DNA from: Clostridia bacterium
GTDB lineage: Bacteria; Bacillota; Clostridia; Christensenellales; UBA1242
Assembly: GCA_045657465.1 (NCBI GenBank)
Contig: JAZOTD010000026.1
Location: 1,156 to 65,155, forward strand
DNA length: 64,000 bases
Direction: 5' to 3'
Positions 1,366 to 36,355 of the stretch are shown piece by piece (within the stretch, counting starts at the first letter, position 1; each line of letters begins with the position of its first letter). The translations under genes were made by a program, and so were the position numbers. Under the pieces are notes generated by a model. That model saw only the letters and a list, made by a program, of their open reading frames with translations. It was not told where the DNA came from and made no database searches.

Positions 1366-1379
1366 TATCTTAAATAATT

Positions 1380-4099: not shown

Positions 4100-7000
4100 C
4101 TATCCCTTGTCGGCCTCTATAATAACTTGTCTGAATTGGGCATCGAGTTTTTCACTATTAAGTCCAACCCATTTAATATACATTTCGCCATCGTCGCTTT
4201 CTTCTACAGTGTAGCATGAAGCATAGAGAGCAGCAACAAGTCCCATAACTTCTTCGTTAACGTTATCACCACGCATCGCCGCAGCAGAGTAAATTGCACA
4301 TGCCGTAGCAACAGTTGCAACAACCGCCGCAGTAACCATAATTGCAGTTCCGACCCAACCGATAGGGTTCCAACAGGTAAGAGCAATAACAATGATTGTG
4401 GCAATAACAGTGATCCATGCGAACAATCGTTCTGCTTTGATATAACCAGGTTCTGGGTCAAATGCATAAACACCAACGATAATTCGGTTTTCCATAGATG
4501 TCTTGTCATAATCTTTTTGGTTGTCATCAATGTTGAAGGTTCGGTTGTCAACAAACACAATTGCATTAACTCTCTTGATTTCAACATTGCCACCAGAACG
4601 ACTTTCTGAGTTTTTAGCAAAATCTTTTGGTGCAAGTGAAGCTGTTGTATCAACAAGAGAAATATAATTGCTTGCAAAGTTTGAATGAAGTCTAGCCATT
4701 GCACCCAATGTTTGCATCCAGTGTGATCCATAACTCTTTGTGGCCATGTCACCAGATTTATACTTAAGCATTTGCTGCATACGTGTTGTTTTTTGTCCAT
4801 TAACTTCTTTTTCTTTAAGGTATCCAGAATCAGAACCCATCAAAATAGTGTCACCAGGACATCCAGACCAAACAAATGAATCCATCTCAATGTCGAGAGT
4901 GATGTAATTGTTTGCTGTGAAGTAATAACTGTATGCATGGTCTGCATAATAGCTGTTTACATATGGCCAGTTGTCTGATCTATACATAACTTGACGTTGA
5001 TACATCTTCTTGAGTTTTATGCTAGAAATCATCAATTCACCTTGACCAAAGTATGATTGAACGAAGTTTGCATCATTTGCATTTACTGATGGGTTTAAAA
5101 TATCAACAACTTTAATTTTGAGATATTTTCCACCAACCATACTTGGTTTTGGAATCGATGTTGCATCTGCATGTCTAGCAATAAAGTCATAAAGTGAAGT
5201 GTAACTGCTAACGTATGTGCCCGAATTGTTATCCGCAAATAAGTATTGTGGATATTTTCCGTTCTTTGAAGCATAGTTTTCAGGGTTGAAACCATTGATG
5301 TATGTGATGTATGAAAGTGCAGATGCTCTTATTTTAACATCATTAGATTTATTTTCATAAATATTTGTTAACTGCGTCAGCACTTTATATGCATCTGAAA
5401 TAATGTATAAATTGTATTTGTCAAACAATATTCCATTTTCTTCATTCAATCCAGGTGCGTTCTTGTTAGATTGTAAGTGTGCTTTCTGGATATTTCCTAC
5501 ATACAAACTCTCAATTACGTGACCTTCATCACCTTGTATATCATTGTTATAGATATTTTCGCCATTACTAAACAACATATTTCTAATTTCAGGTTCTAGA
5601 GCGACAGGGTCGTCAGCACCAAACTGTGCTTGCGGATTGACAGCCATCAATGCTCTTGTGAATATAATGTTTATGTTAACATTTAAGTTTGGCAAATCAA
5701 AGAACACGTTTTGTGAACTTGTTGTGTAGATATTTCCAAAGAAGCTACCAACATCTTTGCTTGTTTCAACAAATGAAATGTCATATGCTGAACCAGTTGT
5801 GGCACCAGCACGAGTTCCACGTTTTTCATCAAGACCAGCTGGTTGATAAATCAAATCAGTGTCTGTCTTGTGTGTGTAATCAATGGTTTTTCCATATACT
5901 TTCAAATTGTATAATGTTGAACCTTCATATTCAGGTGCTTGCAAGTTTTTAGTATCAGCAACAATTTTAACATCAGGAATTGAACCGCTGTCATCATAGA
6001 AAATCTTGATGGAAATTTTGATATGTGCAACAACTTGACCATCGCCATAAGGCAAAATTTCAATTTCGCAGTTTGTATCAAATTTCTTTTTGTTCATTTC
6101 ATCCATTGTAAATTGCGACATTACTTCAATGTTTTGAAGTCTCTTATCTGTTGTGAACATATCAGATGTAATGACATATTCGCCACCACCAATAGCAATT
6201 GAGAACAAGCCTTTCTTTAAGGTGTAGATATCATATTCATTTGTGATATCATTCAAAGACAATGTCATGTATGTTGAATAATCTAAAATGTCTTTGTTGA
6301 TATTTGAACTAGAAATGTTTCTTGAAACATTAGCATAAGTAACTGCATCAACTTCATCTGTGAGCACAATTCCATTTTTGATCATTGTTTCATACTTTGT
6401 GATCCATGGATTTTCTTTATTTTCTGAACCACCATTTGCTGTCCATTGAGCGATTATGGTTTCAATGTTTGAGGTAGAGAATAAATAAATATTAATATTT
6501 TCAGGATCAAAAGTTGCCGTAATAAATTCAGTTGATGGAATAACCGCTAATGTGTAATCTTTTCCATCATCGCCTAAGAATTTGTATTTATAGGTTACAT
6601 ATGAATAAGTTGTTATATCAACTTCGTTCGCATCAACGTGGTGAACTTTTCCGTCATAAACAACTTCAGCATATCCGTTTCCAGTTGGAACAACATCAAA
6701 GATAGAGAATACATATTTGTTGTTTGAGTTAACAAGCAAATCATCTTGTTCTGCATCAGCATATTCAGATTTTGAAATGTATTGACCACTGCCATAAGCA
6801 GATTTGTTACCAATTTCAGTGTTATCTTCAAAATATGTTGCATTGTATTCAAGATATGTTTCAATAGGGAAGTATTCAATAATCTTGTAACAATAAACAG
6901 CTGTGCCGTTTGCAACTTCAGCTCTTCCAACGATATCAGAACTGCTTGTTGTTCCTTTACCCATTTGCAATGTGCGATAGAACGCAGGCTCTAAAATTAC

Positions 7001-10000
7001 ATATCTATCACCAGAAAGATCAGTTAAAATGTTGAAATAGGTTCCACCGTGTTCAACTATTTCAAAGTTTTCTGCAGAACTATAATTTGTATTGTTTATT
7101 GTAATGCTTGAATATTGTTTTTGATCCCTTGCATTTACTGTAACTTCAACATCTTTTGCTTGATATGCATGAAGAGAAGGAATAAATCTCTTATCTGCTT
7201 TATCAAGTCTGATATCTACAGGTTTGTAAACCAAGAATCCAAATTGATTTGAAACATCCCAATCAATTGTTTGTGACAAAATTTGAGTTGGAGTAGCTTT
7301 TCTTCCAGTGTTGTCATTGGTGATAAGCATTAATCCTTGGTTGTCATAAAGTGTATAAACAAACTTACTGTCATTGTTTGCTTGTTTATAATTGATTGTT
7401 GCTTCTGAAATAACAAGCTGTTGACTATTTTCTTTGCTCATTTGGAATTGAGGTTCTTTCAATGAATCATTCTTTGTATAAGCTGCTGGGTTAATCCAAT
7501 CACCACTTTCTTCTTTTACATTTTCAATATACTCTTCACTATATGAAATATAAGTGTCAAGTTTTAATTGATCAGTTGATGGGTCAGTGTAATAACCTGA
7601 TTCAATATCGCCAAGCTCAATTTCAAGTTGATATTGAACAGCCTTGTAGTAGAAGTAAAGTTGAACATCATTTGTAACATTCATAAGAAGAATGTTGTTT
7701 CCAGTTCCTTTAAGTTGTGTTTCATCAACTGTGATCTTTCCACCACCAGAAGCGTATTCATAATGAAGAACACGGTCATCAAGAATGTAAAGATTTGTAT
7801 CATCTGGTTCTGGATTTCCAACTAAGGTTTGCATATTTGCATATCTATAATCTTCATCTTTGTCAGTCTTTACTTCACCATTTTCATCAAATACTTCACC
7901 TTTGATATCATCAATGCTAACTGTATTGTCAATATAGTTTGAATTGAAGATTGATTCAATTTGAGTCATTGAACTATCTTTTCCAAGTGAATATCCAAGG
8001 AACACACTTCCATTATAGGCTCTTGCTTTAATCCAGCTGTCACCTTCATATTCTGCAAGCATAATACCTTTAACATATCCACAAGTTGCTTCTTCAACAG
8101 AATTTGTATTGAAGAAATCTCTATAAACATCATTCATTTCAATTTCTTCACCAACAATATATTCTTGAAGATTTAATTGAATTACTTCAATTGAATATAT
8201 TACTGGGCTATAAACTGCAAATACATTAACATTTCCAAATATAGGAATATCAAAATTGTATGTTACAGAAATTATTGTTCCACTTCCGTCTTTAGTGAAA
8301 ACAAATGGTGAGTTTTCAGTATTGGTTTTAAATACTTCATAATCAATTGATAAGAAGTTGCAATATTCAAATTTTGATAAATATTCTAGGTTCTGCAAAC
8401 CTGTAAGTGGAGGAGTGTCATTAACATTAATTTTATAATTAAGCCATAGTGTATTTGTTGCAGAAATGTTAATGTCAGAGAATACAATAAATCCTTTCAA
8501 ATAATAACCAGCATATGCATTTGCTGTAATGCTTGTTATTTTTGCTGAAGTGTATTGCATGCTTTCTTCTTTTCCAGTAACAGAAGCTTTAATTGTTTCA
8601 CTGATATATCCAACATCTGAATAGCCATTCACAACCGAACCAGCCACAGACGAAGTGCAAATATAACAATTTTGTGAACTTCTTATAAAGCTCTTACTAT
8701 CAACAGAACTATATGTTAAAGCAAGCAAAGCAGTTTCATCTTTTGCTTCAAGTGCAGCATTAAAGTTTGTTGAGTTTACTGAATAAAGTAATCTGGTTTG
8801 ATATCCGTAATAATAAAGTCGATCAGAACCATTGCTATAAATTATCACTTTTTTATCATTAACAACCTTCCAGAGCAATGCAATTTGATCATCGTCAAGT
8901 CCGTTAGAATTTTCCAATAAACCATCATAAATTGAAAGATTAATAACATCATTTCCATCTAAATAATTGATTGTTTCAGGGAAATTTACAAAATTTTCAG
9001 TTCTTGCGGCGTATGGCACTCTATATGTTTTTGAGAATGAACATGAACTTGTAATGTTAGTGCCAGCAGCAAGCTTAATTATTCCTGTTTCTGGATAATA
9101 ATATATTTTTGATGCGCCATTTGTATATTCAACTTCTGTTGCGTTTGATGCAACTGTTACGCTAGGTTCATGGGCAAGTTGATTATAAGTGATTGTAGCA
9201 GGCAATACAACATATGAATCCAAGTGATATTTAGCTCTTTCAAGTTCACTTAATATTTTTGCATTAACATGAACAGGAACTCCTGAGGTTGACGATGTAT
9301 CAACAACAGCATCTTCATTAAATGGATAATCAATATAAAGTTTTGTTCCAGAAATGTAATACTTAAACTTTAATGAATCATTTGTTGTGAATGAATTTAC
9401 AGAAACTTCTTGAGAACCACATTCAACTTCAATTGTTTCGCCACCAGATTTAATAATTTTAACAACAGGGGAAGATAGTGTGTAATCTTCTTGATAAAGT
9501 TTCATTACATCATCATCTTCAATATAAATCAAACCATCATTCTTGCAATAGTAATATTTCATACCATCTGTAATATACATATATGGATAATCATCTTTTG
9601 TATCAGAATCAACATTATCTTGAACATTGATTCCATAACCATTAATTGCAATTTGTTCATAAACAACATCAAGTTTAACATCATTTTCATAGAAGTCATC
9701 TAGCTGAGCTTCATATTCAGACTCTGTAATTTCATCTGAAAAATCATAGCTTGTATAGAATTTGCTTCCATTAATATAATATTTGAAAGATTTTCCTTCA
9801 ACAGGGCTGATTAGAACATAGAATGCAGATTTCTTAACTTCGGCTTCATATTTTACTTGAACTTTTGAATTGTCAGACATATCTTCAGTTTTTTCTTCAA
9901 GTTTTGAGTTGCTGTCATTATGAACAAGCTCAGTGTATGATGCTTCATAAATGCTTGCTTTGATTGTTCTAGATGCATAGTTGCCAGTTTCTGGAGCCTT

Positions 10001-13000: not shown

Positions 13001-16000
13001 ATAGGCATAAAGTTTAGCGTTGTTGGTGTATGAACCAATAAAGTGAGGTGTTCCATCTAGTTCATTTGTTGAAATATAGTCATTAACATATCCAATTGGG
13101 TAATAAAGCTTTAAGTTATATTCTTCGCAGTCTGCAACACTATCATTTTTAGTGATTGTGATGTTAAGAAGATAGAGATCATCTTCTTCCATTGTAACAG
13201 CAAAGCCACTCTTACTTTCTAACGATTTTGGATATGTGAAATGAATTGTGGTATAGAATTTTGAACCAAAACTATCTGAAACAGAAACTTTTGGATCAAG
13301 AACAAATTTATCTAAACCAGTATCAGGATCTGCAGTTATGATTAAACCTTCATATGCTTGGTTAGCAACATTATAATTAAATTCATATGATGCAGTTCCG
13401 CCATCAATTGCATAAACAACTTTAATTTTTCTAACATACTTTCCAGTAGCAGATGAATATGGTTTTGTCACATTTGCAATTGGATCGTCACCAAAGTTAT
13501 TGTTTGGTTTTGAACTTTCGAGATCATCTGGCAAAATTTCAGTTGCATTGTTTCTATCAACATATGCATCATCAACATTGATTTCTGCATCTTTGAATTG
13601 AGCACACACTGTTACTGATTCAGTAACAATGAATGAGAATGAATATCCAACATCACTAACTTTGTAGAATGTTGATGTTTCACTATCATAGTTAACTCTA
13701 AATCCAATGAAACTTTCGTTTTGATATTCTTTTGCCAAAGTCACAGTTATATATGTGTATCTTGGATAATATCTGTTAATCATATTTGAAGAAAGTTGAA
13801 TCTTTTCTTCAGTATGAGTAACGCCTTCTTTGTCAACATAATTTACAACAAAGTAGTTTTGTGTTTTTGAAACAATTTGAAGCTCTGTTGTTGAAACTTG
13901 TTTTGAATATACATAGAGTGTGTATTCATCTTCAGTGATTTGATAAACCGAATCAGTTGATCCAACAAGATTAGAGAGTGGGGTAGTTCCATTTTTGATG
14001 TTTTCAACATAATACTTTTGAGTTGTAGTTTCATTTATTTGTTTAATTATAAACTGTCTATTTGAATCGTCTATGTCAATCTTAAATGAGTTAAGGGTTG
14101 TATAGACACGTGAATCGACCACATTTTCAGTTGGATAATAAACATAATATGCTTTGCCATTTACATAAAGTGTGTTTATGGTATTAGCAAAGTATTGATT
14201 GTGTATCTGATTGTTTTGACTAATGTTGTTTGTTGCAACAATAATCGATGAAGCAGCGTTAAACTTTTGAACAATTGTTTCACCGTTTGCTGTTTTAGAA
14301 GTGTTTTCAGCTAAAACAGAAATTCTAAATGTGTTGTAGTGATTTTGAATTTGAACATCAACTTCATCTAAATTGTTTCCAACATCAACATTTTGAATAA
14401 ATTTGTTGTTATCAATATAAATCTTTGAATATCTAATGTAAGCATCTGCTTGTTCTGCAACATTGCTTGAAATTCTAAATCTATCTCTATAACCACTTGA
14501 TTCAGAATCATAAAGTTTGAATTCTTGACTAATTAATGAATTAAATTCAAACACATCTTCACGAACTTCACCGGTATCTTCATCAACCGCATCACCTCTA
14601 AACAAGAATGTGTTTTCGGCATTGATTGTTACACTAGTGAATGCACTATATACTGTTGCATTAATTTCAATGCTTGATGTTGCACTGTTTGCTTTGAGCG
14701 GAAGCATATTTGTTGCAGCACCTGATTGAATGTAACCATATGCGTTGTGGAGCTTACCTTCAAGTGAAATAGAAGAAAGTTCTGTGTATTCAATTGTGAT
14801 TGTTCGATATTCTACAAATCTACCAACATTTACGCCTTTTAGATTTTCAGTGCTACCAAATGTGTAAGACGACAAGATATTTACACCTTTAGTAACTTCT
14901 TGCCACCAACCAGTAAACACATATTTTTTCTTTGTAATTTTATCTACAAAGATTCTATAACCATTGTCAATCAAGCTTTGATAGTTGTCATAAAGTTCAC
15001 TATTGAAATATTCATAGTCATAGCTTTGAGGTTCGCTATCACCATAACTGTAAACTTCAACTGAAATTGAAGATTCAAGAGTTGGAGTTGCAGGAGATGT
15101 TGTGTATTTAGAAACAAATTGCAACTTTTGTCCTACTTCTTCAATTGCATATAATGAGAAGTATTGGTCATCTGAAACAAGATTTGTTGAAGCAGAAATT
15201 GATTCATTGAACAAATACCAACCATTGAAGTAATAGAATGTTTCTGATGAAACTTGAATGCTTGCATTTTCAACACCAAATCTAAGCAATGTTCCATATG
15301 GAACAGTGATTGTGAAGATTAAGTTTTCTTTGTTTGCTTGAATGTTGATATCAGTGATACTTGTTGAGCTTTCAAAGTAGTCATCACCAAGCACATAAGA
15401 TGCGTTGATTGAGTTGTAGATATTGCTAATAGTTCCAGTAATGAGCAGTTCTTTCAACAATTTTTGGTCTGTGCCGATTGAACCAATATAGTCTTTAGAT
15501 TCTTGACCATTTACTGCGATTCTATATTCAATAGAAACATTTTTAGCAAATTTAGCTTCAACAACAACATCTTCATTAAATTCAGACAAGTCAACGATTA
15601 ATGACAAGTTGTTGTATGAGTTGTCAATATAATCACCATTTACATAAAGACCAATGAATGTGTAGTTTTCTTTTGGTTTTAATGTGATGTAGAGAAGTGG
15701 GAATGTTTCTGAATAAACATGTGTTTCAGGTGAAATAGAACCACCATGTGTTCTAATAGAAGTTAGGCTATAAACAATTTCGCCTCCACATGTTTCATCT
15801 TTGTCAGCTCCATAACTTCCATCACTTTCAACAGTAGAAACCACATAACTGATTGTGTAACCACCATTGATGATAGTGAGAATATCAAAGTCACTTTCAA
15901 CAACATATCTGTAACCAGCTTTGTTGATTGATTGAATTGTAAGTTTGTTTGTTGAATAAAGATTGTTTTCAGCTCTAAAGATTACAACGCTGTTTGAAAT

Positions 16001-19000
16001 GAGATATTCAACATCATCAGCAATTGTTTCTTCTGCAAATGAAATGCTTGTGTAGAGCTGTTTTTCAAGAACATAATAAATTTTGTTTTGATAAATAACA
16101 TATGAACCATTCATAATTGTTGGGTTTGCAGCACTTGCGCCGGCAGCAGCAACAATTGAAACAGTTGTGATATTAACTTCGTATGAATAGATCATGTCGT
16201 CAATTGTTTCAATTGGAACATCAACAAATTCATATGAGTTGTTAAAGTCTAATGATGAAGCCGAAATTTCAGTTTCAACACCACTAACCAAAATTTTAAC
16301 TTTTCCAAACTTATCTGTGTTGAAATAAACAAGTTTTCCATCGGCAATGCTATATGCAACTGAATTGTAAAGCTTGTTGTTGTTTAAGTAGTAATATTCA
16401 GCATTGTAATATACATATTCGATGTTGTTGATGTTATATCTATTACCGATAGTGTTTGTAAGTCTATCTTTTTGATCGAATTCGTATGGATTGTTTATTC
16501 CATCATAATTATCTGTTCTTGATGAACCATCTGCAAGGGTGTCTGAAATTGTATAATAATGTCCTGACCAAGCGTATAGAACTGTGTCATTAACAAATGT
16601 GTCAACAGGAACATTAAACACGATTTCTTCTGTCTTGTATGGTCTTTCACCTTCATTAACTGCAGCGTTCTTCTCTTCAGTAACAACGCCAAGTCTGTTA
16701 TCAGTAGGTGAGTTAAATGTGTAATAGTATCTATAGTTAAGATATGTTGAAATATATCCCGAATCAGTTTCTGGAAGAGCGATCTTGATTGGCATAATTC
16801 TAACAAATCTTGCAACTAGCACGGTTACTTTTGGCAACATAGAGTCAAAGAAGTTGTTTGACACCAAGATATAAGTTGCAGGTCTGTTTGCGTCTGTAAT
16901 AACTTGCCACCAACCAGTGAACAAATATTGAGCTCCATTATGAGTATAAACTTGAATAGAGTTGTCTTTGTCTTCTGGATTGATATCTTGCATGTTGTCA
17001 GGGTTGTTAAGAATTGTTGAAACAGTTAAACCGTCTGACTTGTTATCAGAAATGCTATCAATAACTTCAATATTGTCTTTGTCTGTAGGAACTGATGGAC
17101 CACCTTGATCTTGACTATATTTCGCATCAATATCTAATGAAGAACCATAATAATCATTTGTTGCATAGAATGACAAAGTATCATTATAGCTAATTGCTGA
17201 TGGAGCAAGTTCATATTGACCATGTCTATACAAATACCATCCATTGAAATAGAAGTTGAAGGTTTCTTTGTCAAGACCATCACCAATTGAAGATGTTGGA
17301 GCTTTTTGAGCTACTGCAAGGTCAATCTTTGTTCCATAAGCAACTGTAAATTTCATAAACAAAATGTCTGCATCTACTTTATAGAGTGTATTTCCTTCAG
17401 TAGCAACATATTCTGTTCCATTAAATTCCCAGTTATCTGTATCGCTTTGATAACCGCTGTTTTGATATTCAATATATTCAGTGTTTGAAAGGCTATATTC
17501 AGCTGTTTCATCAAAAATTTCACCTTTCTTTACTTTAATATATTTTTTATCCCAAATGCTAACATTTGGAGTTGTTGAGTTTCCTAATTGGTCAACACTA
17601 TACAAAATATCACTCTTGTAAATAGTTGAAAGGGTGATGCTCACATTAAACGTACTTTGTAATGATTCTTTAATTCCATAAGCAGATTCAAGAGATTCTC
17701 TCAATGAAATATTGTTCACACTCATACGAATTGTAAAGTCAACAAGTTTTGCAAATCTTGCTTCGATTGTGACATCTTTAATTTCTTTTCCAGACAAGAT
17801 ATAGAATTGTTCCATATCCAAAACTATTTCATCAGTATAGTTGTAAGTGTCGCCACTATCAATGCTTATTCCAGCATTTGAATCACCAACATAAATGCCA
17901 TCTAAGAATAATCCAGTGAATGAATATCCTTCTTTTGGAGTGCAAACGATAGAAAGCATATTGTATGTTGGAGAGAAGAATGTTCCATCGCTTTCATTTT
18001 CATTAAATCCTTTTTGATAAGACTTAATTTCAACAGTTCCACCAATAGGACGTTCTGCTCTGTTTGAAATATTTGACAATTCGCTGTCATAATCATCAAT
18101 TGTAGAAACGATTTTGTTTACTTGATAAACTTTTTCATAAATTGCAGTTATATAAATTTTAACAACAATTTCACCTTCACTAATTGGGATATATCCCATA
18201 GCAGTGTTACCTGAAATGCTTGAAACATCTTCAGCAACACCGGTTTCAGTTGTGTATATATATCTATATTGCAATTTTTCTTGTTCAGTTTTTGTTGAAT
18301 CATTAATAACAGGGGCATTAAGATTCACATTCATAATAAGTTTTGTATATTTAAAACCAGTGATGCGATATCCAACTAAATGTCCGCCAGTAACAAGCAG
18401 ATTTGAACCACTAAGTGCATAAATTGCTCGGTTTGGATCATTTTCTGTCATTAAATATGATTCGACATTGTTTGAAATTTTGTATTTTTTGTATTTTGAA
18501 TTATCAGCAACGTTTTCTGGTTTTTTAGCATTAACTAAAGCGTTAAACTTAACCACATCATCAACTATATAATGTTCATTTCCAGCACCGTTTTCAGCTT
18601 TGGTTGAGAATGCAGTTTCTTCAGTTGTGATGCCAAGCAAGTTTCCGCTAAATGTAGATGAAACCAAAATTTTGCCTTCTTCATAACTGTCAAGTGGAGA
18701 AGTTGTGTAATGTACTTCTGTGTAATGACCATATGAAGCGGTAAATCTAAAGTTATCAGATGACATGTATGCATATTTGAATGGCACACCAGCAACCAAG
18801 ATTGTTCCGTTGAAGTTTTCAAGGTCACCAGTCTTTGACATTTGATATCTTTGACCAGAATATTCAAAGTAATAATATTGTCCGTTATAGTCAATTGGCA
18901 TAATTGCATTAATAACTTTATTGTCGCTGTTGTGACTATAAATCACGATGAAACCATTGCTTTCTTTGATTTCATTTGCATACTCTCTAACAAGAGGTAA

Positions 19001-34000: not shown

Positions 34001-36355
34001 GATTGTGTTGTTTGTTGCATTTGAGTTCATATATGCTTGAACGTCAATACTATTGTCTGTTACAAGGTTATAGCTTTCAAGTGTTGCATCGCTTGGAAGA
34101 ACAACTGAAAGATAAACTGTTGTTTTAACGCAACCAAGAGAGTCAACATATGATGTAACAGATTTGATAACTTCATAAGAAATTTCAAGCTTTGTTGGGT
34201 CAACAATTTCACTGCCGTCTTTTGCATGGAAGTTTACAATAACCGAAGTGTCAGCATCATATTTTGTTGCCATAATCGAAGACATTGTGATGTCTTTTAC
34301 TTCATATGAATAATCAACAGAACAGCCTTGGCAAAGTGTTCCATAGCGGTCATAAACATTGCCATCTTCAACATAGTAAATGTTTGCGCCATACATAAAC
34401 ATATTGTTTGATGCTGTGAGATAATAAACATTTCCAAAAGCTCTAACAATCTTGCCAGAAACTTTATTATTTGAAACAACTCTGTTTTGCAAAACCTTGC
34501 CGGCATCAATGTCATCAATAAAAAGGGTAGACATGTCTGTGCCATAGAATCTATAGTTGAGAGTTATTTTGTCATTTTCAGCATCAGTTCTTTCATCATC
34601 AACTTCAATAGACTTAACAAACATGACATAGTCGCCATATTTAAGATTTTTTATTTCATAATTTGCTGAAACTTCAATTCCATTTTCATCATCCAAAACA
34701 TTGTTAATATCATAAATATATGCTTTCACGCCTGAAAGTTCAGCATTATCGTTTGCCAAAATCTTTTCTGCATCAAACAATGTTCCTGATAATGTGAAAT
34801 TGTCAACTTTTAAGTAGTTAGCGTAGAAAGTGTGATTGTTATATTCTTTTTTAGATGTAACATAAATTGTTCCGCTTCTTTGTGTTGTTACTTCTTCACT
34901 TAGGTCAGCAGTTGTATCAATTGTTTTTGAATAATATTCATAGCAACCATTTGAAGCACTCAAAATATTTTCTGTTGTTTTTGAACGAACAGTAAACACT
35001 GTGTCTTTTGTGTCTTTTGATTCAAGACCAAACAAACAAGTGTATTTATCTGTTGTGTCATAAAGTTCAAAGTTGTTGCCAAATGTGTTATATCTATTTT
35101 TTAATGTGTTGTTTGCAAATGTATGTTCAAGAGCAAGAGTATTAACAGGTTTCTTATTTACAGACCATGCTTGGAATGCATAATTTGCACCTTTTGCAAT
35201 ATTGTCTCCGTCAGCAGTTGTTGTTGTGTAGTCGATGTTTCTAGTAACTTCAACAATTCGACCTTTTGGAAAGTATCCTGTTAAACCAGACAAATAATTA
35301 ACTGCTTTGTTAGCTGTTTGGCTGAGTGAACGAGAATAGGTGTATTCAACGTCATAGAAGTAAAATTCTGCCGCATCATATGAAAGTTCACCATAATCAA
35401 CTTGTGCACTGTTATATGAATACGTTTTGAAAGTCATTCTATATGCTTGATAGCTGAATGTTTTTGAATAAACAGAATCACCACGCTTTGCAGCTGCTGT
35501 GTCTTTGTCATCTGAAGATTGATAAAGTGATTTTGATTTATCTGTTTCAGCAGATGAAAGTGGGTTGTAGCTCATGCCCATATTAGGAACGGCTTTAACT
35601 CTTAATCTTCTGTTTGTTGAACCATTTTCAAGATGTGGATTAAACTTGAGATAGAATACACGGTCAAATGATTCAAGTTCGCCAAAATTATTGTTTCCAT
35701 CATCTTGAGTGGTTGGATTTTTATCATCGAGAACATCTTGTTTTAAATTGAGATAAACAGCTTCAACAAAACCGTTGGCATCAAGCCATCTGCCTGTGGT
35801 GCCAACTCTATAAGTGAATGAGAAAATATCGTCAAGGTTTGCAGTAGCCTCAACGTAGTGTTTCATATCAAAAGGTGCTTCGCTATCACCATTGTCATAC
35901 GCTTGAGCAGGTGAGTCACCATTGTGAATCACAAGTTTGCTCGTGTCAACAGTTACATGGATTTGATAGATGTAGCCATCAACCGTAAAGACATAGTCAG
36001 GGTAAACAAGCTTTGGAATTGCACTAAGCTGTGTGCCATCGTCATAAACGATTGGCTTGCTTCCAGTCTGGTCATATCTATCTGCCTTGTCAACGTTTAA
36101 GTCATCATAATAAAATTGCATAGGCAAAAGGAATGAACCAGTGTGTTCATTAGTGTCTCCTGTAGACGTTGACTCATAATAAGTCAATTTTGCTTGCGAA
36201 ATTCTATACTTGTCATAGGCATCAAAACCAGTTGTTGAAGCGGCAGCGCCAGAGCAAGCTACGAAAAATATTGATGCAAAACAAACAAACATAGCAATGC
36301 ATGTTTTTGCAAATTTTGAAAAAATATTTTTCTTGTTCTTTTGTGTTTTTTCCAT
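4100..36355 (-). CDS. Giant predicted cell-envelope or surface protein (10,751 aa) with a signal/lipoprotein-like N-terminus, many divergent beta-rich repeat modules including InlB B-repeat (Flg_new)-like motifs, and a C-terminal double-TM anchor
   Basis: Single stop-free frame of 32,256 nt in AT-rich DNA. Strong RBS AAGGTGGA lies 6 nt upstream of the ATG. N-terminus is MEKTQKNKKNIFSKFAKTCIAMFVCFASIFFVACSG. The C-terminus has two hydrophobic helices plus a 57-aa tail. A terminator hairpin follows. ORFs in the other frames are all about 200 aa or shorter and low complexity. Confidence 0.85.
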   Translation of the reverse strand: MEKTQKNKKNIFSKFAKTCIAMFVCFASIFFVACSGAAASTTGFDAYDKYRISQAKLTYYESTSTGDTNEHTGSFLLPMQFYYDDLNVDKADRYDQTGSKPIVYDDGTQLSAIPKLVYPDYVFTVDGYIYQIHVTVDTSKLVIHNGDSPAQAYDNGDSEAPFDMKHYVEATANLDDIFSFTYRVGTTGRWLDANGFVEAVYLNLKQDVLDDKNPTTQDDGNNNFGELESFDRVFYLKFNPHLENGSTNRRLRVKAVPNMGMSYNPLSSAETDKSKSLYQSSDDKDTAAAKRGDSVYSKTFSYQAYRMTFKTYSYNSAQVDYGELSYDAAEFYFYDVEYTYSRSLSQTANKAVNYLSGLTGYFPKGRIVEVTRNIDYTTTTADGDNIAKGANYAFQAWSVNKKPVNTLALEHTFANNTLKNRYNTFGNNFELYDTTDKYTCLFGLESKDTKDTVFTVRSKTTENILSASNGCYEYYSKTIDTTADLSEEVTTQRSGTIYVTSKKEYNNHTFYANYLKVDNFTLSGTLFDAEKILANDNAELSGVKAYIYDINNVLDDENGIEVSANYEIKNLKYGDYVMFVKSIEVDDERTDAENDKITLNYRFYGTDMSTLFIDDIDAGKVLQNRVVSNNKVSGKIVRAFGNVYYLTASNNMFMYGANIYYVEDGNVYDRYGTLCQGCSVDYSYEVKDITMSSIMATKYDADTSVIVNFHAKDGSEIVDPTKLEISYEVIKSVTSYVDSLGCVKTTVYLSVVLPSDATLESYNLVTDNSIDVQAYMNSNATNNTIVVITNAIEKPEDGGTAYEQEFYYADLYTSTVSAGALNYLNPDDVNESMDGNFLLYADNYYKYSYQNSFGTEILYVFQSTTSNDMFVKSYDTDSRLTNYEYIHFRKINIASNYGTDPNSLYALPFQTTNNAGKYVNATELHYNGYRYFHADSSVPYLLQKGSKQEAYVPKATEINKTYVEGDGSSPSTQFVNEVVYDKEADTSILQERFIGAYENFFGETTVDCGDDVTLYVSHLVYNTYFYNLSLSEKIDLSVEDVDVDLKEETLTYRASFYEDIKNANGGLTDYYTFNVGETQYFYYEGNVYFDFNVETVIFEDRFKGDITQLFGATKLEVVYDQAKGYYVANITRLILTLGKEKLYFSMNTNQFYTDVYLSNEIDLIADRGYKNFTITKESATEYSINLERYVAEFKDFSASSSPLFSVTEVKFYVDTTSTVLYSDFECFKAWSYQTDTIYIEIAADGSATLTVQNTFFTNIKFTADSKDYYVFAENSAFSNLPLYIENPDSESDEKFILVVDTAFNLDITGVSFAKNLRFSYGSNWITTFTKADGTSTGTVEAAKPEDIKDHPTDYGVAADAYIIDGVRANNFALRFFGKSSTSIVAHGYKSDMNINAFLYHGSYLYFKLDKNGNILPTLYANEVFDENTILLDKAFSAFNYQGIKWKIASVELFGTEFTGMVYDGNQSIVDAEGKTQHVIGGTPMLNADKTPVTDQKLYYSSEDYVSAEGGLKIYNLYIDAFRFSSYQTANLLVQDSSNNYYASVLETTKREKHPSTGEFIPTYTYNGNLCYMKLEDFENGTGKKITLYKNYDYIETVDTGNDVFIYHSPFGAGVNKNILKYDTSKKLPIKGGGVATSAIDVYSITKESDKYKLTINVDLTINQQTYDKPATALNSYDSVCYLYYDLDKYSYLDGGNRKTVYHSTTPLAKRTVINGVENIEYYYGISNFDQLVEQGVIATGLDIYTRKNEESFGSKNVNYKAYYDDVGAKLVNYYYYYVAQLEESDRKTLYVVQENENSGSGQAVISQVEFRSIYGTGVYTAGQVYTRNTVNFETLFKGYDGSSSISGISAQTSNIIEAYRLLVKDTATQPYVEYKGTKYYMSKDNVDNHASFVGSIIKLYTSPTTMDNTTAASFTATGFSYDGTEFYVLLNYLSFSAGSKEGKIYLTTGGSDTNRFKEYVLLNGSAPEGNYGSVTNIQNSPSYLQSIGFGTEQYKATFEAQDRDGNYTINNYNYYDSVIEYELSPENATELGYDTSKSTYIALQLVYTLYRCYTSDLYSYSSPTPINIYIANVATEWNPNGTVKKNSGYCFIEAYQYTDTDASGNTQRYSKFELLRDNSGNLITYEMLFTELTEGQSNINTQYLFGSYVEETTIKYNDVTETYYLKTRVGSSTNEFKYYYYDNGNFKPIEDISLTPAIVESYEDYKSGQHVSYSFTYGGKYYYALASHTKAGDPHGYGVVYESNVDLVPTDNNVLTYTFLKNNATEAVADGRPLVFNAETGMILKVLSDGNYSQWAEINRNTNRITIAIDPTDTSKSFTTNCVKMAYDCFSNGIYYLHTDGLIYNRYVGIVSGEYQFDKVNAVYDFNYFYSQTENIFEFRPTAQYFMFASYKAVATYQMSTESNVDMGSLTAINKVAYAKDINSGELVVSSSIVSAVHTEYFSFNGDGTINFSDPLNKVTKTEFVDVGSSSHYVSDGKTNEIITILGKFTIATTSEDVITYNSFSSIIPLKGNQSALMNSSGYYPIDYLNKDNVSEGFPGVTLVDGAPYVNPIFVFDVYHKQGKPAIVDFAVTINNGYYVDIITSIVENEDNDIVTDFTAVSFKSRLNNLMTNDYIDNMYYVVDNVSFKTLVVYKDLTDIITGNEDNLVEVTFADYYYGNYVDEDNPNLIPFMRLSNYNELETDKKNIYGGIIRVGGGSSAKYYQLYTAALKITDVAMNDEATDTNLYYADTQQLNPATGKYEYNSNIFILKNGAFKTLADGDVALWESSTSVMEDILYYDIHTYYQDDKTGVIYLTSDITENSANDECVGLSGIELGATSSSTASINYDNVVVAGLTSAYKVKSKDIPSPGSGEFTGYWFDKSISVLNAGQATTVYLEVGLESVVFVANPLISFNGSIYYRFKEWRVYERENAEYITYNQEKTEGLKDDRYSAIARFESNTAGYFLMLPVYEKIYAVSLATEVLNGSLNVGGSINIKSTSESVLIDEDDYQKDLYFIEYLKNETTQNYYSKIEMAPFLYFTGEYYKGQPIFQRIGIQSQEDLKNENKTNTLLVCETLPGEGYQTFKIMTFKGSNLVSVSDSLGVFGLNVKTMAAGQPCLVSLGNQNGMLGTEKALYNQDGSTFYIRNLNYESQNFVAIDESMQTYVFSPTPAVGYKTIYDVISYQILSTEPSNNELTSAIRVIYADGFFYRVTQETYEKMTNAPTKYCTNCSSAMKVSELNADGKCATCGGAVVTNSNALDITKEVLLDSEVIARSIIKTYSLAKQQSQDPKVGDYYSSTANDLSSGELFADENGKVYSTLQFKTSYYDRDSGLLLSAIPDAGYRLEGWYEVRYDDVYGWVVDDEDISKKMTANYSDKLIRTQLKQNSSVTTYAVSTKGKYPNGREYRVTYSISSDMYADMQFADDLTIVPASLRSYYGGLFVNTGSLSSPKFVQVYAKNGNSEDLYYDEEYTRAYVSPSTMTIAEMWNSNYIGYMTYYDAVVASYSYDGTEIKHEFKEVTDNVYVSTSTTFSLSSGTVYALFEYNDSTFSYDINYYRTYTEGNYVIDGNTLKIKNIHSNIKYVAKFIDIYQTYIFNESEIDSGISVQALYYYNEDDTKDTIRTNSSGQNKTIEDVNLVTTDNEGNPVNNNFLGGGYGSDGSELYPFSLKKQAGDDAEAQPNLFSRVPDTSGSYVGKSYFEAYYTAESQRNFAALSKIKTTAPATGTDYSISRDEGATGSFERNAYAMFATEKTSLSLKNFYFDSNTTAFILIRLDVNYALSIHSLGLDSRYVLNFLIEPNIAAINEGQTEDVEYLYYLLKVTLDRSMEQTDGVTTTAGNENPEYVLHPEKAKNITSDVLTGYGIGYYDSFFDLFVTTSGGDRYNLAEDNYMTFTFNSKSLKLKMAFAENVSYKYAKAISFSKYMAESLFYWLAKEGAFNGVTKDNFYTTTTSGSPPVTTYNWTAPISIGTKTFNFSDYINVKLSGSDAQLNYLDTIRKAFIFVFNNLCYAQESNSANLNFATAMRELPNLINQILGKFSAKTVSISTTSVDTINYYMTVSGEIFVTQNFIYSKTQNSILNLKVNEITQALASQEVLEITKTPTLFQVLTDYTKTLILDLQYQSFTRLSDFISKVNQILYAASNVENAINLAFALESESYYKISPIGTSGEYSSYKNSTENELDLISEIFYTVVSNIEQNSIADVGNEASGDVNISGTALYVKSPSEIYIYGPFISGRVNYVNLSSITIYTVSVSTSIIDTIDDTDSKYTDQFFSTTDKNFTENPYYILDNQIYTAGGVSSSLGELTYIGGAKKTTENEFRYVDGYATYQKFNSGYQHLSDNMLYAEGSTANRPNYCSYGNMSFAEYSIILWGGLRTYYQNSAVSFTSNENKYTERVTKLTNSTDYNGTKEYIEIENGKYVVCKVNDTDEVWVYEEDYKTVYIAKMAFNPATHTKFADISPYIVKAYTFAGWYSQTFDRDTRLWSEMECITTEFVKPFITTATTDTNIVAIFTAITNLSFTYNPSEVNVEFESTIDSTGNEVVTTRDEDTGTITISGWYYFSSSPTVMVAPIGGYRIADTYKLSYLSANGSNKFGDVISSDTSNRYDTGTHPIKFITYAGDDKYQEVKFDDLSLTNVSYIQYPLASYMVDLNTTDSVKEKTALLKCDISIETEFVVLTQFTIDSFISDGEAKKDFYLYSYDNADMAGSKENIMYITGATGSTIHYGDNITGKDSANNPISVVWKGNGLTITGYFDYKKYNGYEDSAGNFIQPTHSLIAGIEFETEEIKNEYSQWVTNGTSSSTGSPNVYTTDASKNKAWFFAGDDYIGKFYDERIIYFYLFDESFNPENKETIKISNATINEDAQLGQNNHIILLQAVSKSPTILEVGQKFYTINQSNSPAISAVEVSDIPVVPMVLNYNAPYYGAGSETSDTSSSSNGVLYYNLDSIEDFADVDNIENGYYIKYKFGKFGEGDSEPSPTSNLVISISTGRGEDYSIVEYKGRYFKFVGFKFGEDISTSPVINFGNDELAGKVTAIFVEIQILDINVNAGGSYEAVVSNTALLANEDLKKLNASSLGVAGSHMKLPTSADQDHISNDDSFNYVIIGSDVTIYPVASAGSIIEIAKYKPGTGAETNIAKTGVTVNGATLPANLKNYTVAIKNYQEKYVFTYNFSNAYVVTMKQYLMSSMSESAIAQLYTDNAYTIVVDEDNDYMTDAYVNSLSTMTAEQRNQFFNYTLKSKEYMSTSYALNESFYVYFFAEPATSLIGFYKNGQSLIDSVINSHMLTPWKVNVSIGGQLYKIYRFNYKDTQPLLAGVTSDLSLEVRFSTSMTIQTQIDGLSLVGGVYPYDKIFSDTMLIGANEYLLADYTSPEGAVQHTITNDIYHSDKTSINAGSSINYKIQTVDSTDYAFVYYYFNKRYKATYEAGAYKIRYSGEDCYYYPKGYAADQTKAGKLFTARGEEISVNCSLATITKDDGSGKQVTTYEVLIEEIISDKATSSITITNVMTDNADDNNVLVIYAKFAEVVTFTFNTKIDVHIDDENFANNNATSEIFKDYFDALIIFTNSGGNERRVYLSTLLDESGGQVTIQKDSKVYVYPYLAPQVENRYMPSVKESIFNITSGFQEDTTVVANLGQYYDGCFYIDTSGDKLSGKKALYMNLSYFCAFTIEVEKTINGNAFDDSINGDSTEDLLPFVNVYLSTDYAKNKVNLRDIHYLSYYDYSYNPYTDTDGATTTKTYHSSNSLQLTYPIHNPSDNSRIYTYQTLKTNLVDDVNSGAAFDSTNLVFYGWYLNGYLYSTNPTINLPLVREYANEIKESNGFIVIYSHNSDNKVINAIMPIDYNGQYYYFEYSGQRYQMSKTGDLENFNGTILVAGVPFKYAYMSSDNFRFTASYGHYTEVHYTTSPLDSYEEGKILVSSTFSGNLLGITTEETAFSTKAENGAGNEHYIVDDVVKFNALVNAKKPENVADNSKYKKYKISNNVESYLMTENDPNRAIYALSGSNLLVTGGHLVGYRITGFKYTKLIMNVNLNAPVINDSTKTEQEKLQYRYIYTTETGVAEDVSSISGNTAMGYIPISEGEIVVKIYITAIYEKVYQVNKIVSTIDDYDSELSNISNRAERPIGGTVEIKSYQKGFNENESDGTFFSPTYNMLSIVCTPKEGYSFTGLFLDGIYVGDSNAGISIDSGDTYNYTDEIVLDMEQFYILSGKEIKDVTIEARFAKLVDFTIRMSVNNISLRESLESAYGIKESLQSTFNVSITLSTIYKSDILYSVDQLGNSTTPNVSIWDKKYIKVKKGEIFDETAEYSLSNTEYIEYQNSGYQSDTDNWEFNGTEYVATEGNTLYKVDADILFMKFTVAYGTKIDLAVAQKAPTSSIGDGLDKETFNFYFNGWYLYRHGQYELAPSAISYNDTLSFYATNDYYGSSLDIDAKYSQDQGGPSVPTDKDNIEVIDSISDNKSDGLTVSTILNNPDNMQDINPEDKDNSIQVYTHNGAQYLFTGWWQVITDANRPATYILVSNNFFDSMLPKVTVLVARFVRIMPIKIALPETDSGYISTYLNYRYYYTFNSPTDNRLGVVTEEKNAAVNEGERPYKTEEIVFNVPVDTFVNDTVLYAWSGHYYTISDTLADGSSRTDNYDGINNPYEFDQKDRLTNTIGNRYNINNIEYVYYNAEYYYLNNNKLYNSVAYSIADGKLVYFNTDKFGKVKILVSGVETEISASSLDFNNSYEFVDVPIETIDDMIYSYEVNITTVSIVAAAGASAANPTIMNGSYVIYQNKIYYVLEKQLYTSISFAEETIADDVEYLISNSVVIFRAENNLYSTNKLTIQSINKAGYRYVVESDFDILTIINGGYTISYVVSTVESDGSYGADKDETCGGEIVYSLTSIRTHGGSISPETHVYSETFPLLYITLKPKENYTFIGLYVNGDYIDNSYNNLSLIVDLSEFNEDVVVEAKFAKNVSIEYRIAVNGQESKDYIGSIGTDQKLLKELLITGTISNIYNSINASYVLGDDYFESSTSITDINIQANKENLIFTITVPYGTLLRFGVENASIQVSSETFYYFNGWYLFNESISASTNLVSDDQYFSLYAIEEVGQKLQFVSKYTTSPATPTLESSISVEVYSYGDSEPQSYDYEYFNSELYDNYQSLIDNGYRIFVDKITKKKYVFTGWWQEVTKGVNILSSYTFGSTENLKGVNVGRFVEYRTITIEYTELSSISLEGKLHNAYGYIQSGAATNMLPLKANSATSSIEINATVYSAFTSVTINAENTFLFRGDAVDEDTGEVREDVFEFNSLISQEFKLYDSESSGYRDRFRISSNVAEQADAYIRYSKIYIDNNKFIQNVDVGNNLDEVDVQIQNHYNTFRISVLAENTSKTANGETIVQKFNAASSIIVATNNISQNNQIHNQYFANTINTLYVNGKAYYVYYPTENVVDSRVYTTLNSFKIDIDDSNRQFIIKQINETTTQKYYVENIKNGTTPLSNLVGSTDSVYQITEDEYTLYVYSKQVSTTELQIVSKTQNYFVVNYVDKEGVTHTEEKIQLSSNMINRYYPRYTYITVTLAKEYQNESFIGFRVNYDSETSTFYKVSDVGYSFSFIVTESVTVCAQFKDAEINVDDAYVDRNNATEILPDDLESSKPNNNFGDDPIANVTKPYSSATGKYVRKIKVVYAIDGGTASYEFNYNVANQAYEGLIITADPDTGLDKFVLDPKVSVSDSFGSKFYTTIHFTYPKSLESKSGFAVTMEEDDLYLLNITITKNDSVADCEEYNLKLYYPIGYVNDYISTNELDGTPHFIGSYTNNAKLYAYIKTQILDNAGEKGTTLFIDPQVEKSGIKFSETFGNNDFIDGFYTYSTDGVSTNKLSGYLKTTTPDNVYIGNVLQFTEGTQNYNIIYNFKTKGTIRVYVHPSYYENGEYKPELKQSKLMSTVKEFDFVKDSIQVGNPYVEADHNYNIKRPTGIDTNLDNTVYRVGHSGETGVYYIEIEYYFSAPLTIYFKSSYLSFERYYYHDADNVIKTLNSLDYGSLNSAITMSYGEYTSCLNASYQYPDGSEKKGMLILHCEAKESVKSTSLSFDFKEDTAGGVESPEIAIEIKMNEKVYTPNLTSIKHTSTNDIKMMTFTNGADNFTVSYLSESNDTIGKYTIKLIYAEDLIHNNAIFTVKLLNFVKKYQYSGTSSTRETYEVADFANYSLDFKDVYCANGLQSNEDKVERETTLDIGANSVIHWTLGGTFADNNEIIIQTQKLYYILLSRDAAENKGGGVFGNGTGDMFKIGLKIYKTGKSNEVINIETDGTNIDTLSIYAYVSFGDTVTVSAASGFENGFKNIWYYKNTKKAYDLYPSYANTDNYHQIQVTSGVPAMLADYNNIYGALVNGKYNLIGTGAVSFINNDNDYAKYLIGPQDSTNPALSWFAPISNITKNPLEMTLQPTSSMFYIADAYVNASSAGASYITGILAPGNSSHYSYDPSFNHISSSSATDTNFNYIIGKVEKGDSVTYTQNYSSNRDKFIYSQIEAVEENNELYLNEGFKNEYDKSSKIEYTKFENTSTTHYIYGNAVQYALLIKSTISNMGITTGYYKSSALPKKTEYSIFDYIYDASNTTVYELVTSVDISGGGSYGDYATIGNSGQYITVTDAFDSDYFNGDISDGEKAYFKKSVLSSGGRLHAVTLRYNDKEYYFIDGQIYTSYSLQNPETPDYSLTNVCYPIMDGLFFNVNYSKPAVAVNYGGGELDIQPYSVSVYKLRVYYGDSKEYYYQDGKLYNSNTNTELPNTSYTEFLGEPTLNHNNSLYYVSDVLVLNSRNPEIINCVDKAPETGNYASRTIKASIYEASYTELVHNDSNSKLEEKTEDMSDNSKVQVKYEAEVKKSAFYVLISPVEGKSFKYYINGSKFYTSYDFSDEITESEYEAQLDDFYENDVKLDVVYEQIAINGYGINVQDNVDSDTKDDYPYMYITDGMKYYYCKNDGLIYIEDDDVMKLYQEDYTLSSPVVKIIKSGGETIEVECGSQEVSVNSFTTNDSLKFKYYISGTKLYIDYPFNEDAVVDTSSTSGVPVHVNAKILSELERAKYHLDSYVVLPATITYNQLAHEPSVTVASNATEVEYTNGASKIYYYPETGIIKLAAGTNITSSCSFSKTYRVPYAARTENFVNFPETINYLDGNDVINLSIYDGLLENSNGLDDDQIALLWKVVNDKKVIIYSNGSDRLYYYGYQTRLLYSVNSTNFNAALEAKDETALLALTYSSVDSKSFIRSSQNCYICTSSVAGSVVNGYSDVGYISETIKASVTGKEESMQYTSAKITSITANAYAGYYLKGFIVFSDINISATNTLWLNYKINVNDTPPLTGLQNLEYLSKFEYCNFLSIDYEVFKTNTENSPFVFTKDGSGTIISVTYNFDIPIFGNVNVFAVYSPVIYSIEVIQLNLQEYIVGEEIEMNDVYRDFFNTNSVEEATCGYVKGIMLAEYEGDSWIKARAYNGSVFLGYSLGKDSSMTQIESIFNSNYIDNTVSIDDIKGEVFDENGEVKTDKDEDYRYANMQTLVGNPEPDDTNLYILDDRVLHYEYASGGGKITVDETQLKGTGNNILLMNVTNDVQLYFYYKAVQYQLEIELGDIESGYYTDPSTDQLKLDTYISYSEEYIENVKEESGDWINPAAYTKNDSLKEPQFQMSKENSQQLVISEATINYKQANNDSKFVYTLYDNQGLMLITNDNTGRKATPTQILSQTIDWDVSNQFGFLVYKPVDIRLDKADKRFIPSLHAYQAKDVEVTVNARDQKQYSSITINNTNYSSAENFEIVEHGGTYFNILTDLSGDRYVILEPAFYRTLQMGKGTTSSSDIVGRAEVANGTAVYCYKIIEYFPIETYLEYNATYFEDNTEIGNKSAYGSGQYISKSEYADAEQDDLLVNSNNKYVFSIFDVVPTGNGYAEVVYDGKVHHVDANEVDITTYSYVTYKYKFLGDDGKDYTLAVIPSTEFITATFDPENINIYLFSTSNIETIIAQWTANGGSENKENPWITKYETMIKNGIVLTDEVDAVTYANVSRNISSSNINKDILDYSTYMTLSLNDITNEYDIYTLKKGLFSIAIGGGEYVITSDMFTTDKRLQNIEVMSQFTMDEMNKKKFDTNCEIEILPYGDGQVVAHIKISIKIFYDDSGSIPDVKIVADTKNLQAPEYEGSTLYNLKVYGKTIDYTHKTDTDLIYQPAGLDEKRGTRAGATTGSAYDISFVETSKDVGSFFGNIYTTSSQNVFFDLPNLNVNINIIFTRALMAVNPQAQFGADDPVALEPEIRNMLFSNGENIYNNDIQGDEGHVIESLYVGNIQKAHLQSNKNAPGLNEENGILFDKYNLYIISDAYKVLTQLTNIYENKSNDVKIRASALSYITYINGFNPENYASKNGKYPQYLFADNNSGTYVSSYTSLYDFIARHADATSIPKPSMVGGKYLKIKVVDILNPSVNANDANFVQSYFGQGELMISSIKLKKMYQRQVMYRSDNWPYVNSYYADHAYSYYFTANNYITLDIEMDSFVWSGCPGDTILMGSDSGYLKEKEVNGQKTTRMQQMLKYKSGDMATKSYGSHWMQTLGAMARLHSNFASNYISLVDTTASLAPKDFAKNSESRSGGNVEIKRVNAIVFVDNRTFNIDDNQKDYDKTSMENRIIVGVYAFDPEPGYIKAERLFAWITVIATIIVIALTCWNPIGWVGTAIMVTAAVVATVATACAIYSAAAMRGDNVNEEVMGLVAALYASCYTVEESDDGEMYIKWVGLNSEKLDAQFRQVIIEADKG
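4274..4426 (-). other. Two adjacent predicted transmembrane helices (C-terminal anchor) of the giant protein
   Basis: LFAWITVIATIIVIALTCW-NP-IGWVGTAIMVTAAVVATVATACAIYSAAAM, followed by the 57-aa tail RGDNVNEE...IIEADKG. No LPXTG motif is present. Confidence 0.65.
14800..15700 (-). repeat. Internal paralogous module B of the giant protein (protein-level duplication)
   Basis: Same ordered landmarks as module A: PKENYTFIGLYVNG ... VVVEAKFAKNVSIEYRIAVN ... ITVPYGTLLRFGV ... ETFYYFNGWYLF ... YVFTGWWQE ... VGRFVEY. Confidence 0.65.
16800..17950 (-). repeat. Internal paralogous module A of the giant protein (protein-level duplication)
   Basis: Ordered landmarks: PKEGYSFTGLFLDG ... VTIEARFAKLVDFTIRMSVN ... 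FTVAYGTKIDLAV ... ETFNFYFNGWYLY ... YLFTGWWQV ... VARFVRI. Confidence 0.65.
36236..36355 (-). other. Signal peptide, possibly a lipobox, of the giant protein
   Basis: Lys-rich n-region (KTQKNKKN..K..K), hydrophobic core CIAMFVCFASIFFVA, Cys34 in FVAC followed by SGAAAS. The lipobox is imperfect (Phe at -3), so SPase I cleavage after AAA is an alternative. Confidence 0.6.

Follow-up and report, generated by a model that had tools for sequence, protein, structure and literature searches.

A predicted giant surface lipoprotein encoded within a probable phage-derived island of uncultured Clostridia

What does a single reading frame that fills half of a 64-kb stretch of clostridial DNA encode, and why does it lie beside genes of apparent phage origin? 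The stretch, referred to here as the window, comprises 64,000 nucleotides of contig JAZOTD010000026.1 (positions 1,156 to 65,155, forward strand) of the Clostridia bacterium assembly GCA_045657465.1. An initial annotation, made from the sequence alone, had described the frame as one gene for an envelope-anchored protein of no known giant-protein family. The analysis reported here points, with a probability of about 60%, to a giant surface lipoprotein of a new family, tethered at both ends and likely an adhesin or surface coat, whose gene sits in the manner of a prophage moron within an island resembling a defective prophage or a gene transfer agent (GTA). The gene is the following:

4100..36355, minus strand: giant gene, one open reading frame (ORF) of 10,751 amino acids (aa), ATG start, stop TAG at 4100-4102

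Translation of the giant ORF revealed a sole stop codon, the terminal one, and the longest open runs in the five remaining frames across it were 63-211 codons. Given the local base composition, 7.7% of codons would be stops by chance, and an uninterrupted run of 10,751 open codons has a probability of ~1e-373. Together with the collinear independent homologues described below, this indicates that the giant ORF is a real gene, as the initial annotation had proposed.

A scan of species-representative genomes revealed one relative, in a metagenome-assembled genome (MAG) of an uncultured Clostridia (locus L001), whose 2,855 residues available before the contig end all align collinearly with the window protein, at 24-51% identity. 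Further giant homologues were reached by following terminase homologues into other assemblies, where they occupy the same position:

L011: giant gene, 9,895 aa as called (JGI, 894-kb contig)
L013: giant gene, 7,486 aa as called
L016 and L017: giant genes, 5,461 and 5,484 aa as called
L040: giant gene, 10,669 aa as called
L042: giant gene, 10,801 aa as called (NCBI)

Read in translation table 11, the first 2,600 residues of the giant homologues form an open frame that runs collinear to the window protein, and the collinear identity between the window protein and independently assembled homologues is 25-56%. Overall identity of the giant protein across lineages is no more than 22-35%, and the GC content of the hosts varies between 25% and 36%. 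The ratio of nonsynonymous to synonymous substitution rates (dN/dS) was ~0.08 between the near-identical strains of L001 and L011 (2,588 codons, few substitutions), the one usable pair, since other pairs are identical.

An assembly or annotation artefact, such as fused genes or a chimeric contig, is of negligible probability. One MAG-type assembly underlies the window and no support for an artefact was found, while the chance figure given above and at least seven independently assembled homologues (JGI, ENA, NCBI), all in uncultured low-GC Clostridia and with uninterrupted collinear architecture, oppose it. Continuity of the frame, for which the initial annotation had called for long-read re-assembly or PCR tiling, is attested indirectly, by the intact ORFs in relatives.

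On the 894-kb contig, the JGI calls at L011 16094-16729 and 19063-21108 run through in-frame TGA, as under code 4. Re-read in table 11, these genes encode 191 and 666 aa, agreeing with their orthologues, and the 9,895 aa of the L011 giant gene may therefore be slightly too long. For the window an alternative genetic code was rejected, as TGA terminates three window genes and the giant gene uses TGG at each of its 51 Trp positions.

The ends of the giant gene and of its product carry these features, which are present as first described:

36362..36369, minus strand: ribosome-binding site AAGGTGGA, 6 nt 5' of the giant-gene ATG
36254..36355, minus strand: lipoprotein signal peptide, aa 1-34, with a Lys-rich n-region, hydrophobic core and lipobox FVA/C
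4274..4441, minus strand: C-terminal hydrophobic hairpin, aa 10639-10694, with two predicted transmembrane (TM) helices and the linker NPIGW
4103..4273, minus strand: acidic C-terminal tail of 57 aa, from the giant-protein translation
4040..4076, minus strand: intrinsic terminator of the giant gene, a hairpin

Lipoboxes were identified as [LVIFM][ASTVI][GAS]C within ~40 residues of the start, after a positive n-region and a hydrophobic h-region. The giant protein has all of these elements, with a charged n-region, a hydrophobic h-region and the lipobox FVA/C34. A lipobox is present in every homologue N-terminus checked (FVAC, LVAC, LVGC, MVSC, FTAC, LTSC and LAGC), and C34 is invariant across a 7-sequence alignment of the family. 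C-terminal hydrophobic helices followed by a short tail were found both in the window protein and in P0126 (6,417 aa), the one complete homologue viewed end to end. No further hydrophobic segments occur within the ~10,600 residues between the signal peptide and the C-terminal hairpin. LPXTG and its variants LPXT[GAN] are absent from the whole protein, in line with the initial annotation, and the tail that follows the hydrophobic region is acidic, so that no sortase anchor is recognisable.

From these features we infer that the protein, of ~1.2 MDa, is a surface lipoprotein tethered to the membrane at both ends, which upholds the original proposal of envelope anchoring. It would be exported via Sec, with lipid modification and cleavage at Cys34 by the lipoprotein pathway, and the C-terminal two-helix hairpin would provide a second hold in the cytoplasmic membrane. 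Lipid at Cys34 and the C-terminal hairpin together would place ~10,600 residues outside the cell. Such a double anchor, of N-terminal lipid and C-terminal helical hairpin, is unusual.

The ectodomain is non-repetitive in sequence. The giant gene contains no DNA tandem repeats of note, and internal similarity is confined to one duplication and a set of small modules:

14702..17977, minus strand: sole internal duplication, aa 6127-6555 versus aa 6881-7218, ~28% identity
7934..26545, minus strand: 12 divergent InlB-B-repeat-like modules of ~85 aa each, motif GYxFxGWY, aa 3271-9474, from a motif list and a hidden Markov model (HMM)

Conserved blocks lie at the N-terminus, in the centre (~aa 2480-3880) and at the C-terminus, with variable stretches between them. 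Blocks shared with P0126 cover window aa 113-871, 2483-3877, 4448-4736, 6370-6544 and 9378-9711, and the last 400 residues are shared weakly. Variable insertions between the conserved blocks explain the range of homologue lengths, 5.4-10.8 thousand aa. The InlB-like modules sit in these variable stretches and total ~1,000 of the 10,751 residues, and an HMM built from them and iterated recovered the 12 seed copies only. Each copy of the duplication (~430 aa) contains three of the modules. The composition is dominated by Ser (9.1%), Tyr (8.9%), Thr (8.6%) and Asn (8.0%) with 0.5% Cys, matching the impression originally gained by eye. A zinc-ribbon-like CxxC-x14-CxxC motif (CTNC...CATC) is present at aa 3209-3230 (26666-26731) of this otherwise Cys-poor protein; it falls where L013 does not align, in a region that is presumably extracellular.

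Searches of protein family libraries with the giant protein returned a single borderline Pfam match, to Flg_new_2 (PF18998), at 23.0 bits versus a cut-off of 23.6 (aa 6862-6939). The same weak match was found in two of eight homologues, for which Pfam gave nothing else. NCBIfam and PHROGs gave no match, and sequence searches of the PDB were empty, whether made with single tiles or with a profile built from seven family sequences over the N-terminal 2,650 aa. FIVAR/GA arrays, which would mark an Ebh-type protein, had no Pfam match in the giant protein. An RTX-type, type-1-secreted adhesin is likewise not indicated: Pfam and NCBIfam gave no such match, GGxGxD occurs once, by chance, and an N-terminal Sec/lipoprotein signal is incompatible with export by a type 1 secretion system. 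When aa 2300-3250 were compared exhaustively by HMMER with 1.84 billion representative proteins, 13 matched, all of them family members (P0126 among them) or fragments, and no relative outside the family was found. Homologue searches gave no match with the C-terminal 1,500 aa and one partial match with an alignment of aa 2384-3139, and pattern scans of IMG/VR and the JGI metagenomes with two giant-protein alignments detected no giant-protein relative.

On these searches the giant protein belongs to an orphan family that is otherwise undescribed, consistent with the view that no known giant-protein family accounts for it. The accompanying statement on absent motifs stands for FIVAR/GA and RTX, but the protein is not devoid of recognisable modules, given the 12 InlB-B-repeat-like modules and the borderline Flg_new_2 match. 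Neither the family nor its link with phage-derived genes was described in the literature searched.

Few proteins reach ~10,000 aa, and those known consist mostly of familiar domains arrayed as repeats. Ebh of Staphylococcus aureus has ~10,000 aa, FIVAR/GA repeats, a YSIRK-type signal and a C-terminal membrane-spanning anchor. The giant protein resembles Ebh in length, in its N-terminal export signal, in a C-terminal membrane anchor that is not LPXTG and in a presumed extended ectodomain; it differs in lacking FIVAR/GA or tandem arrays, in its lipoprotein signal and two-helix C-terminal hairpin, and in showing no sequence similarity to Ebh. With its ~12 GYxFxGWY modules it also recalls Firmicutes proteins with InlB B-repeats or Listeria-Bacteroides repeats (Flg_new, Flg_new_2), but these modules make up only a small part of it and score below the Pfam gathering threshold, and the rest matches nothing. 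Giant proteins of Omnitrophota, found in metagenomes, are reportedly very long, secreted and mostly uncharacterised. Those of the Hodor megaplasmids carry S-layer and MBG domains and are sortase-dependent (PMC12934698). The window protein is like both in being very long, predicted to be secreted, mostly uncharacterised and seen only in metagenomes; it differs from both in phylum, context and anchoring, and the S-layer and MBG domains of the Hodor proteins were not found in it.

The genes around the giant gene bear on the second part of the question. The initial annotation had taken the opposite-strand genes for housekeeping genes, but those next to the giant gene encode a regulator, terminase, portal, capsid and holin, and housekeeping genes start past the holin. 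The neighbouring genes are as follows:

1979..3988, minus strand: p669, with a signal peptide, ectodomain, SH3b-like C-terminal repeats and TM anchor; promoter-like site at 4023-3995 and bidirectional terminator at 1949-1980
36787..37470, plus strand: sigma-70 region-4/extracytoplasmic-function (ECF)/RinA-like regulator, from library matches, conserved in all loci
37406..38374, minus strand: p322, with a signal peptide, SH3b-like ectodomain and TM anchor, overlapping the regulator 3' end convergently
38422..39858, plus strand: large terminase subunit (TerL), 478 aa as called in P0002
39848..40448, plus strand: two small ORFs of 150 aa and 56 aa, recognised by conservation
40441..42288, plus strand: P22-like portal protein, library match
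42298..42888, plus strand: scaffold-like/virion structural protein of 196 aa between portal and capsid, weak PHROG 20312 match
42898..44070, plus strand: major capsid protein, borderline Pfam SU10_MCP match
44088..46461, plus strand: three conserved ORFs of 141, 190 and 459 aa, presumed head-completion or tail
46533..47237, plus strand: holin-domain protein of 234 aa, the last island gene

Together with the giant gene, these genes form an island spanning 1979-47237 (~45 kb). The 141-, 190- and 459-aa ORFs have no family match in Pfam, PHROGs or NCBIfam; the 459-aa product, p459, is the fastest-evolving of the cluster (24-29% identity) and likely a tail protein. By capsid and terminase, the nearest isolated phages are actinobacterial, with genomes of ~45 kb and 24-29% identity; the window capsid protein is 24-28% identical to the annotated capsid proteins of such phages. 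Judged by its genes, the cluster is derived from a short-tailed (podovirus-like) phage.

Library scans identified no integrase, replication or lysogeny genes among the island genes. No tRNA gene lies at the island, and att-like direct repeats at its borders amount to A/T-rich chance matches. The flanks of the island were seen in the window genome, where NUDIX, HD and aspS genes lie to the left of p669, and rnj, U32 peptidase, sigma factor, mgsA, lepA, hemN and hrcA genes to the right of the island. A 357-aa multi-pass membrane protein is encoded at 47431-48506, ends 1 nt before the rnj start and probably belongs to a host operon with rnj, which places the right island border at ~47240-47430. 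A terminator-like hairpin lies downstream of the holin gene.

The island therefore combines head, tail and lysis genes with the lack of integrase, replication and lysogeny genes, a chromosomal location and conservation across species, as in a GTA-like element or domesticated prophage. It looks like a defective prophage or GTA-like element. The FpGTA of Faecalibacterium is a 10.5-kb chromosomal podovirus-like operon of terminase, portal, scaffold and capsid genes (PMC12946183). Its 40-nm particles carry ~9 kb of host DNA, and it is conserved across gut Clostridia species and associated with lysis genes (PMC12946183). By its description, FpGTA is the nearest known counterpart of the cluster beside the giant gene, though it is no counterpart of the giant gene itself. 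In gene content both are compact chromosomal clusters of short-tailed-phage type, which encode terminase, portal, scaffold and capsid alongside a few hypothetical proteins; unlike the present island, FpGTA is not described with a giant gene beside it in the passages of PMC12946183 consulted.

The phage module is collinear in every related locus, with identities to L001 of 71% for TerL, 69% for capsid, 55% for portal and 26% for p459. TerL has relatives at 65-81% identity in >120 clusters (90% level), many of them on contigs of 0.4-0.9 Mb, indicating that the cluster is chromosomal and widespread. The giant gene lies next to the cluster in 8 of 8 distinct lineages with TerL identity of at least 65% and upstream sequence, and the same gene order is found in L001/L011, L013, L016, L021, L022, L040 and L042. 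The search of relatives for orthologues and a conserved neighbourhood that the initial annotation had suggested thus revealed that both the giant gene and its linkage to the cluster are conserved.

The more distant locus L026 (IMG/VR contig, 1-3500; TerL 58%) has no giant gene. There, a 615-aa p669 homologue with a signal, SH3b-like repeats and TM segment abuts the regulator gene, which indicates that the giant gene lies inside the island. This comparison suggests that a single island clade gained the giant gene, by insertion or acquisition, or that the gene expanded there. A scan of IMG/VR with p669 gave no match, and Pfam searches of the flanks of the compact relatives L024, L026 and L029 revealed nothing settling the mobility of the island.

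An ordinary host adhesin, functionally unlinked to the cluster and adjacent to it by vertical synteny beside a fixed defective prophage, is an unlikely explanation. The TerL homologues on large chromosomal contigs, the failure to find att sites and an integrase at the island, and the giant gene's own promoter and terminator are all compatible with it. However, adjacency has been kept despite the low overall identity of the giant protein and the spread of host GC from 25% to 36%, and the p669-regulator junction of L026 puts the giant gene inside the island, not beside it. In addition, the GC content at third codon positions (GC3) of the giant gene is 0.230, which agrees with the value of 0.234 for the phage module and is lower than the 0.289 of the host genes.

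Transcription signals of the giant gene include a candidate promoter:

36420..36447, minus strand: sigma-A-type promoter of the giant gene, TTGAAA-16 nt-TAAAAT, the -10 element extended by TG; part of a conserved block (six loci)

The giant gene and the sigma/RinA-like regulator are transcribed divergently from an intergenic region of ~430 bp, which holds the block conserved in six loci that coincides with this promoter. With a promoter-like site and a terminator of its own, the giant gene would be an autonomous unit on the strand opposite to the late genes, a layout that, from the predicted signals, is that of a prophage moron. The promoter-like site in a conserved block, the terminator and the location inside the island were all observed; fixation across the clade is atypical of a moron. 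Surface proteins borne by phages and their relatives include Bap, a giant adhesin encoded by the phage satellite SaPIbov2, and the small superinfection-excluding prophage lipoproteins Ltp of TP-J34 and Llp of T5. Like morons and lysogenic-conversion genes, the giant gene encodes a surface protein, has a predicted promoter and terminator of its own, is embedded in a phage-derived element and runs counter to the late genes. It is unlike them in that its product is 4 to 100 times larger and fixed across the element clade, and in that the element lacks integrase and replication genes.

The same signals bear on whether the giant protein could be a component of the podovirus virion, either an internal protein that is ejected or a giant fibre packaged in or attached to the capsid. 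In phages distantly related by capsid and terminase, a large late gene lacks annotation (one of 1,743 aa in Microbacterium phage Shocker, for instance), the podoviruses N4 and T7 package very large internal proteins, and the ~45-kb span of the island resembles the genome size of the nearest isolated phages. Even so, a virion role is highly improbable: the conserved lipobox predicts export as a lipoprotein, the gene runs against the structural genes and has a separate sigma-A-type promoter and terminator, neither PHROGs nor the IMG/VR scan gave a relative, and the giant gene varies twofold in length where the capsid genes are constant.

A functional partnership with the phage-derived particles, in which the giant protein would serve as a kin-cell receptor or docking fibre, a particle tether, or a shield against superinfection or re-adsorption, we regard as rather unlikely. 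In its favour are the presence of the giant gene in all eight lineages at TerL 65-81% and its absence from the 58% relative L026, its divergent orientation from the regulator of the cluster across a shared intergenic region, the fact that the giant protein and p459, the putative tail protein, evolve much faster than TerL and capsid, and the precedent of Ltp and Llp. On the other hand, the giant-gene promoter resembles a housekeeping sigma-A promoter, not a late promoter, the window lacks the ~340- and ~670-aa genes of L011 and L016 yet has an intact giant gene, and 10,000 residues are not needed for exclusion or a receptor role. The narrower proposal that the giant lipoprotein is a co-evolving part of a podovirus-derived GTA-like system, a megadalton surface fibre acting as a kin-specific docking receptor or exclusion shield for the particles of the adjacent genes, appears quite improbable. 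If true, one island would encode both a vehicle and its address on the cell surface.

Several relatives have extra genes before the holin gene. Genes of ~340, ~670 and 82 aa are found between the p459 homologue and the holin at L011 18048-21308 and L016 17944-21199, and are missing from the corresponding interval of the window, 46461-46533. At the same place L013 has an 833-aa gene that matches PHROG 5302 (tail protein). The particle module of the window is reduced and may be defective.

The preferred reading remains that of a doubly tethered surface lipoprotein with a moron-like gene. Topology, size and the InlB-like modules suggest a function as adhesin, fibre or coat. An adhesin or surface coat of this kind would be made in normal growth, and would benefit the host cell and hence the island. 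Several points weigh against this reading. The giant gene is fixed in all examined lineages with TerL identity of at least 65%, whereas ordinary morons are sporadic; such fixation is a hint that its function is bound up with the phage-derived genes more closely than that of cargo would be. In the predicted topology, a two-helix hairpin would leave the C-terminal tail extracellular, an unusual arrangement. AlphaFold2 models of aa 2384-3139 (two-sequence alignment) and of the C-terminal 752 aa (single sequence) had predicted local distance difference test (pLDDT) scores of 30.0 and 28.7, respectively, and are both uninformative on the structure of the giant protein, including the all-beta character that the initial annotation had suspected from its composition.

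Giant bacterial surface proteins are known as a kind; new here, and absent from the literature searched, are the family and its genomic association with a phage-derived island. A conserved, largely non-repetitive protein of this size would widen the structural repertoire of bacterial surface proteins. The island is widespread in gut and rumen Clostridia, and the giant protein may be relevant to the persistence of domesticated phage clusters in uncultured gut anaerobes and, if the island is GTA-like, to the recognition of cells by such particles. For annotation, housekeeping-looking plus-strand genes next to giant ORFs merit a check for phage origin.

Some further observations concern the other island genes. 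The products of p669 and p322 are alike, each with a signal peptide, an ectodomain, SH3b-like motifs of the GYI..NYV type, one TM helix and a basic tail, and their genes have the lowest GC3 of the window, 0.18. The convergent overlap of the regulator (plus strand) and p322 (minus strand) covers 65 nt at 37406-37470, and the p322 start lies ~47 nt before the terminase start. This nested antisense layout is present in every related locus, for instance at L011 8188-8895 and 8850-9923. Island contigs often break in or after head or tail genes: L040 ends after the capsid gene and L042 in the gene past the ~340-aa one, breaks that may reflect strain variation of tail genes. At L002 3195-14088, on a 65-kb IMG/VR contig, lies a related head module, with 59% identity in TerL and 56% in capsid. 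Its terminase appears split, extra ORFs lie within the terminase region, and just upstream are genes for two large serine recombinases and for a homologue of DNA polymerase.

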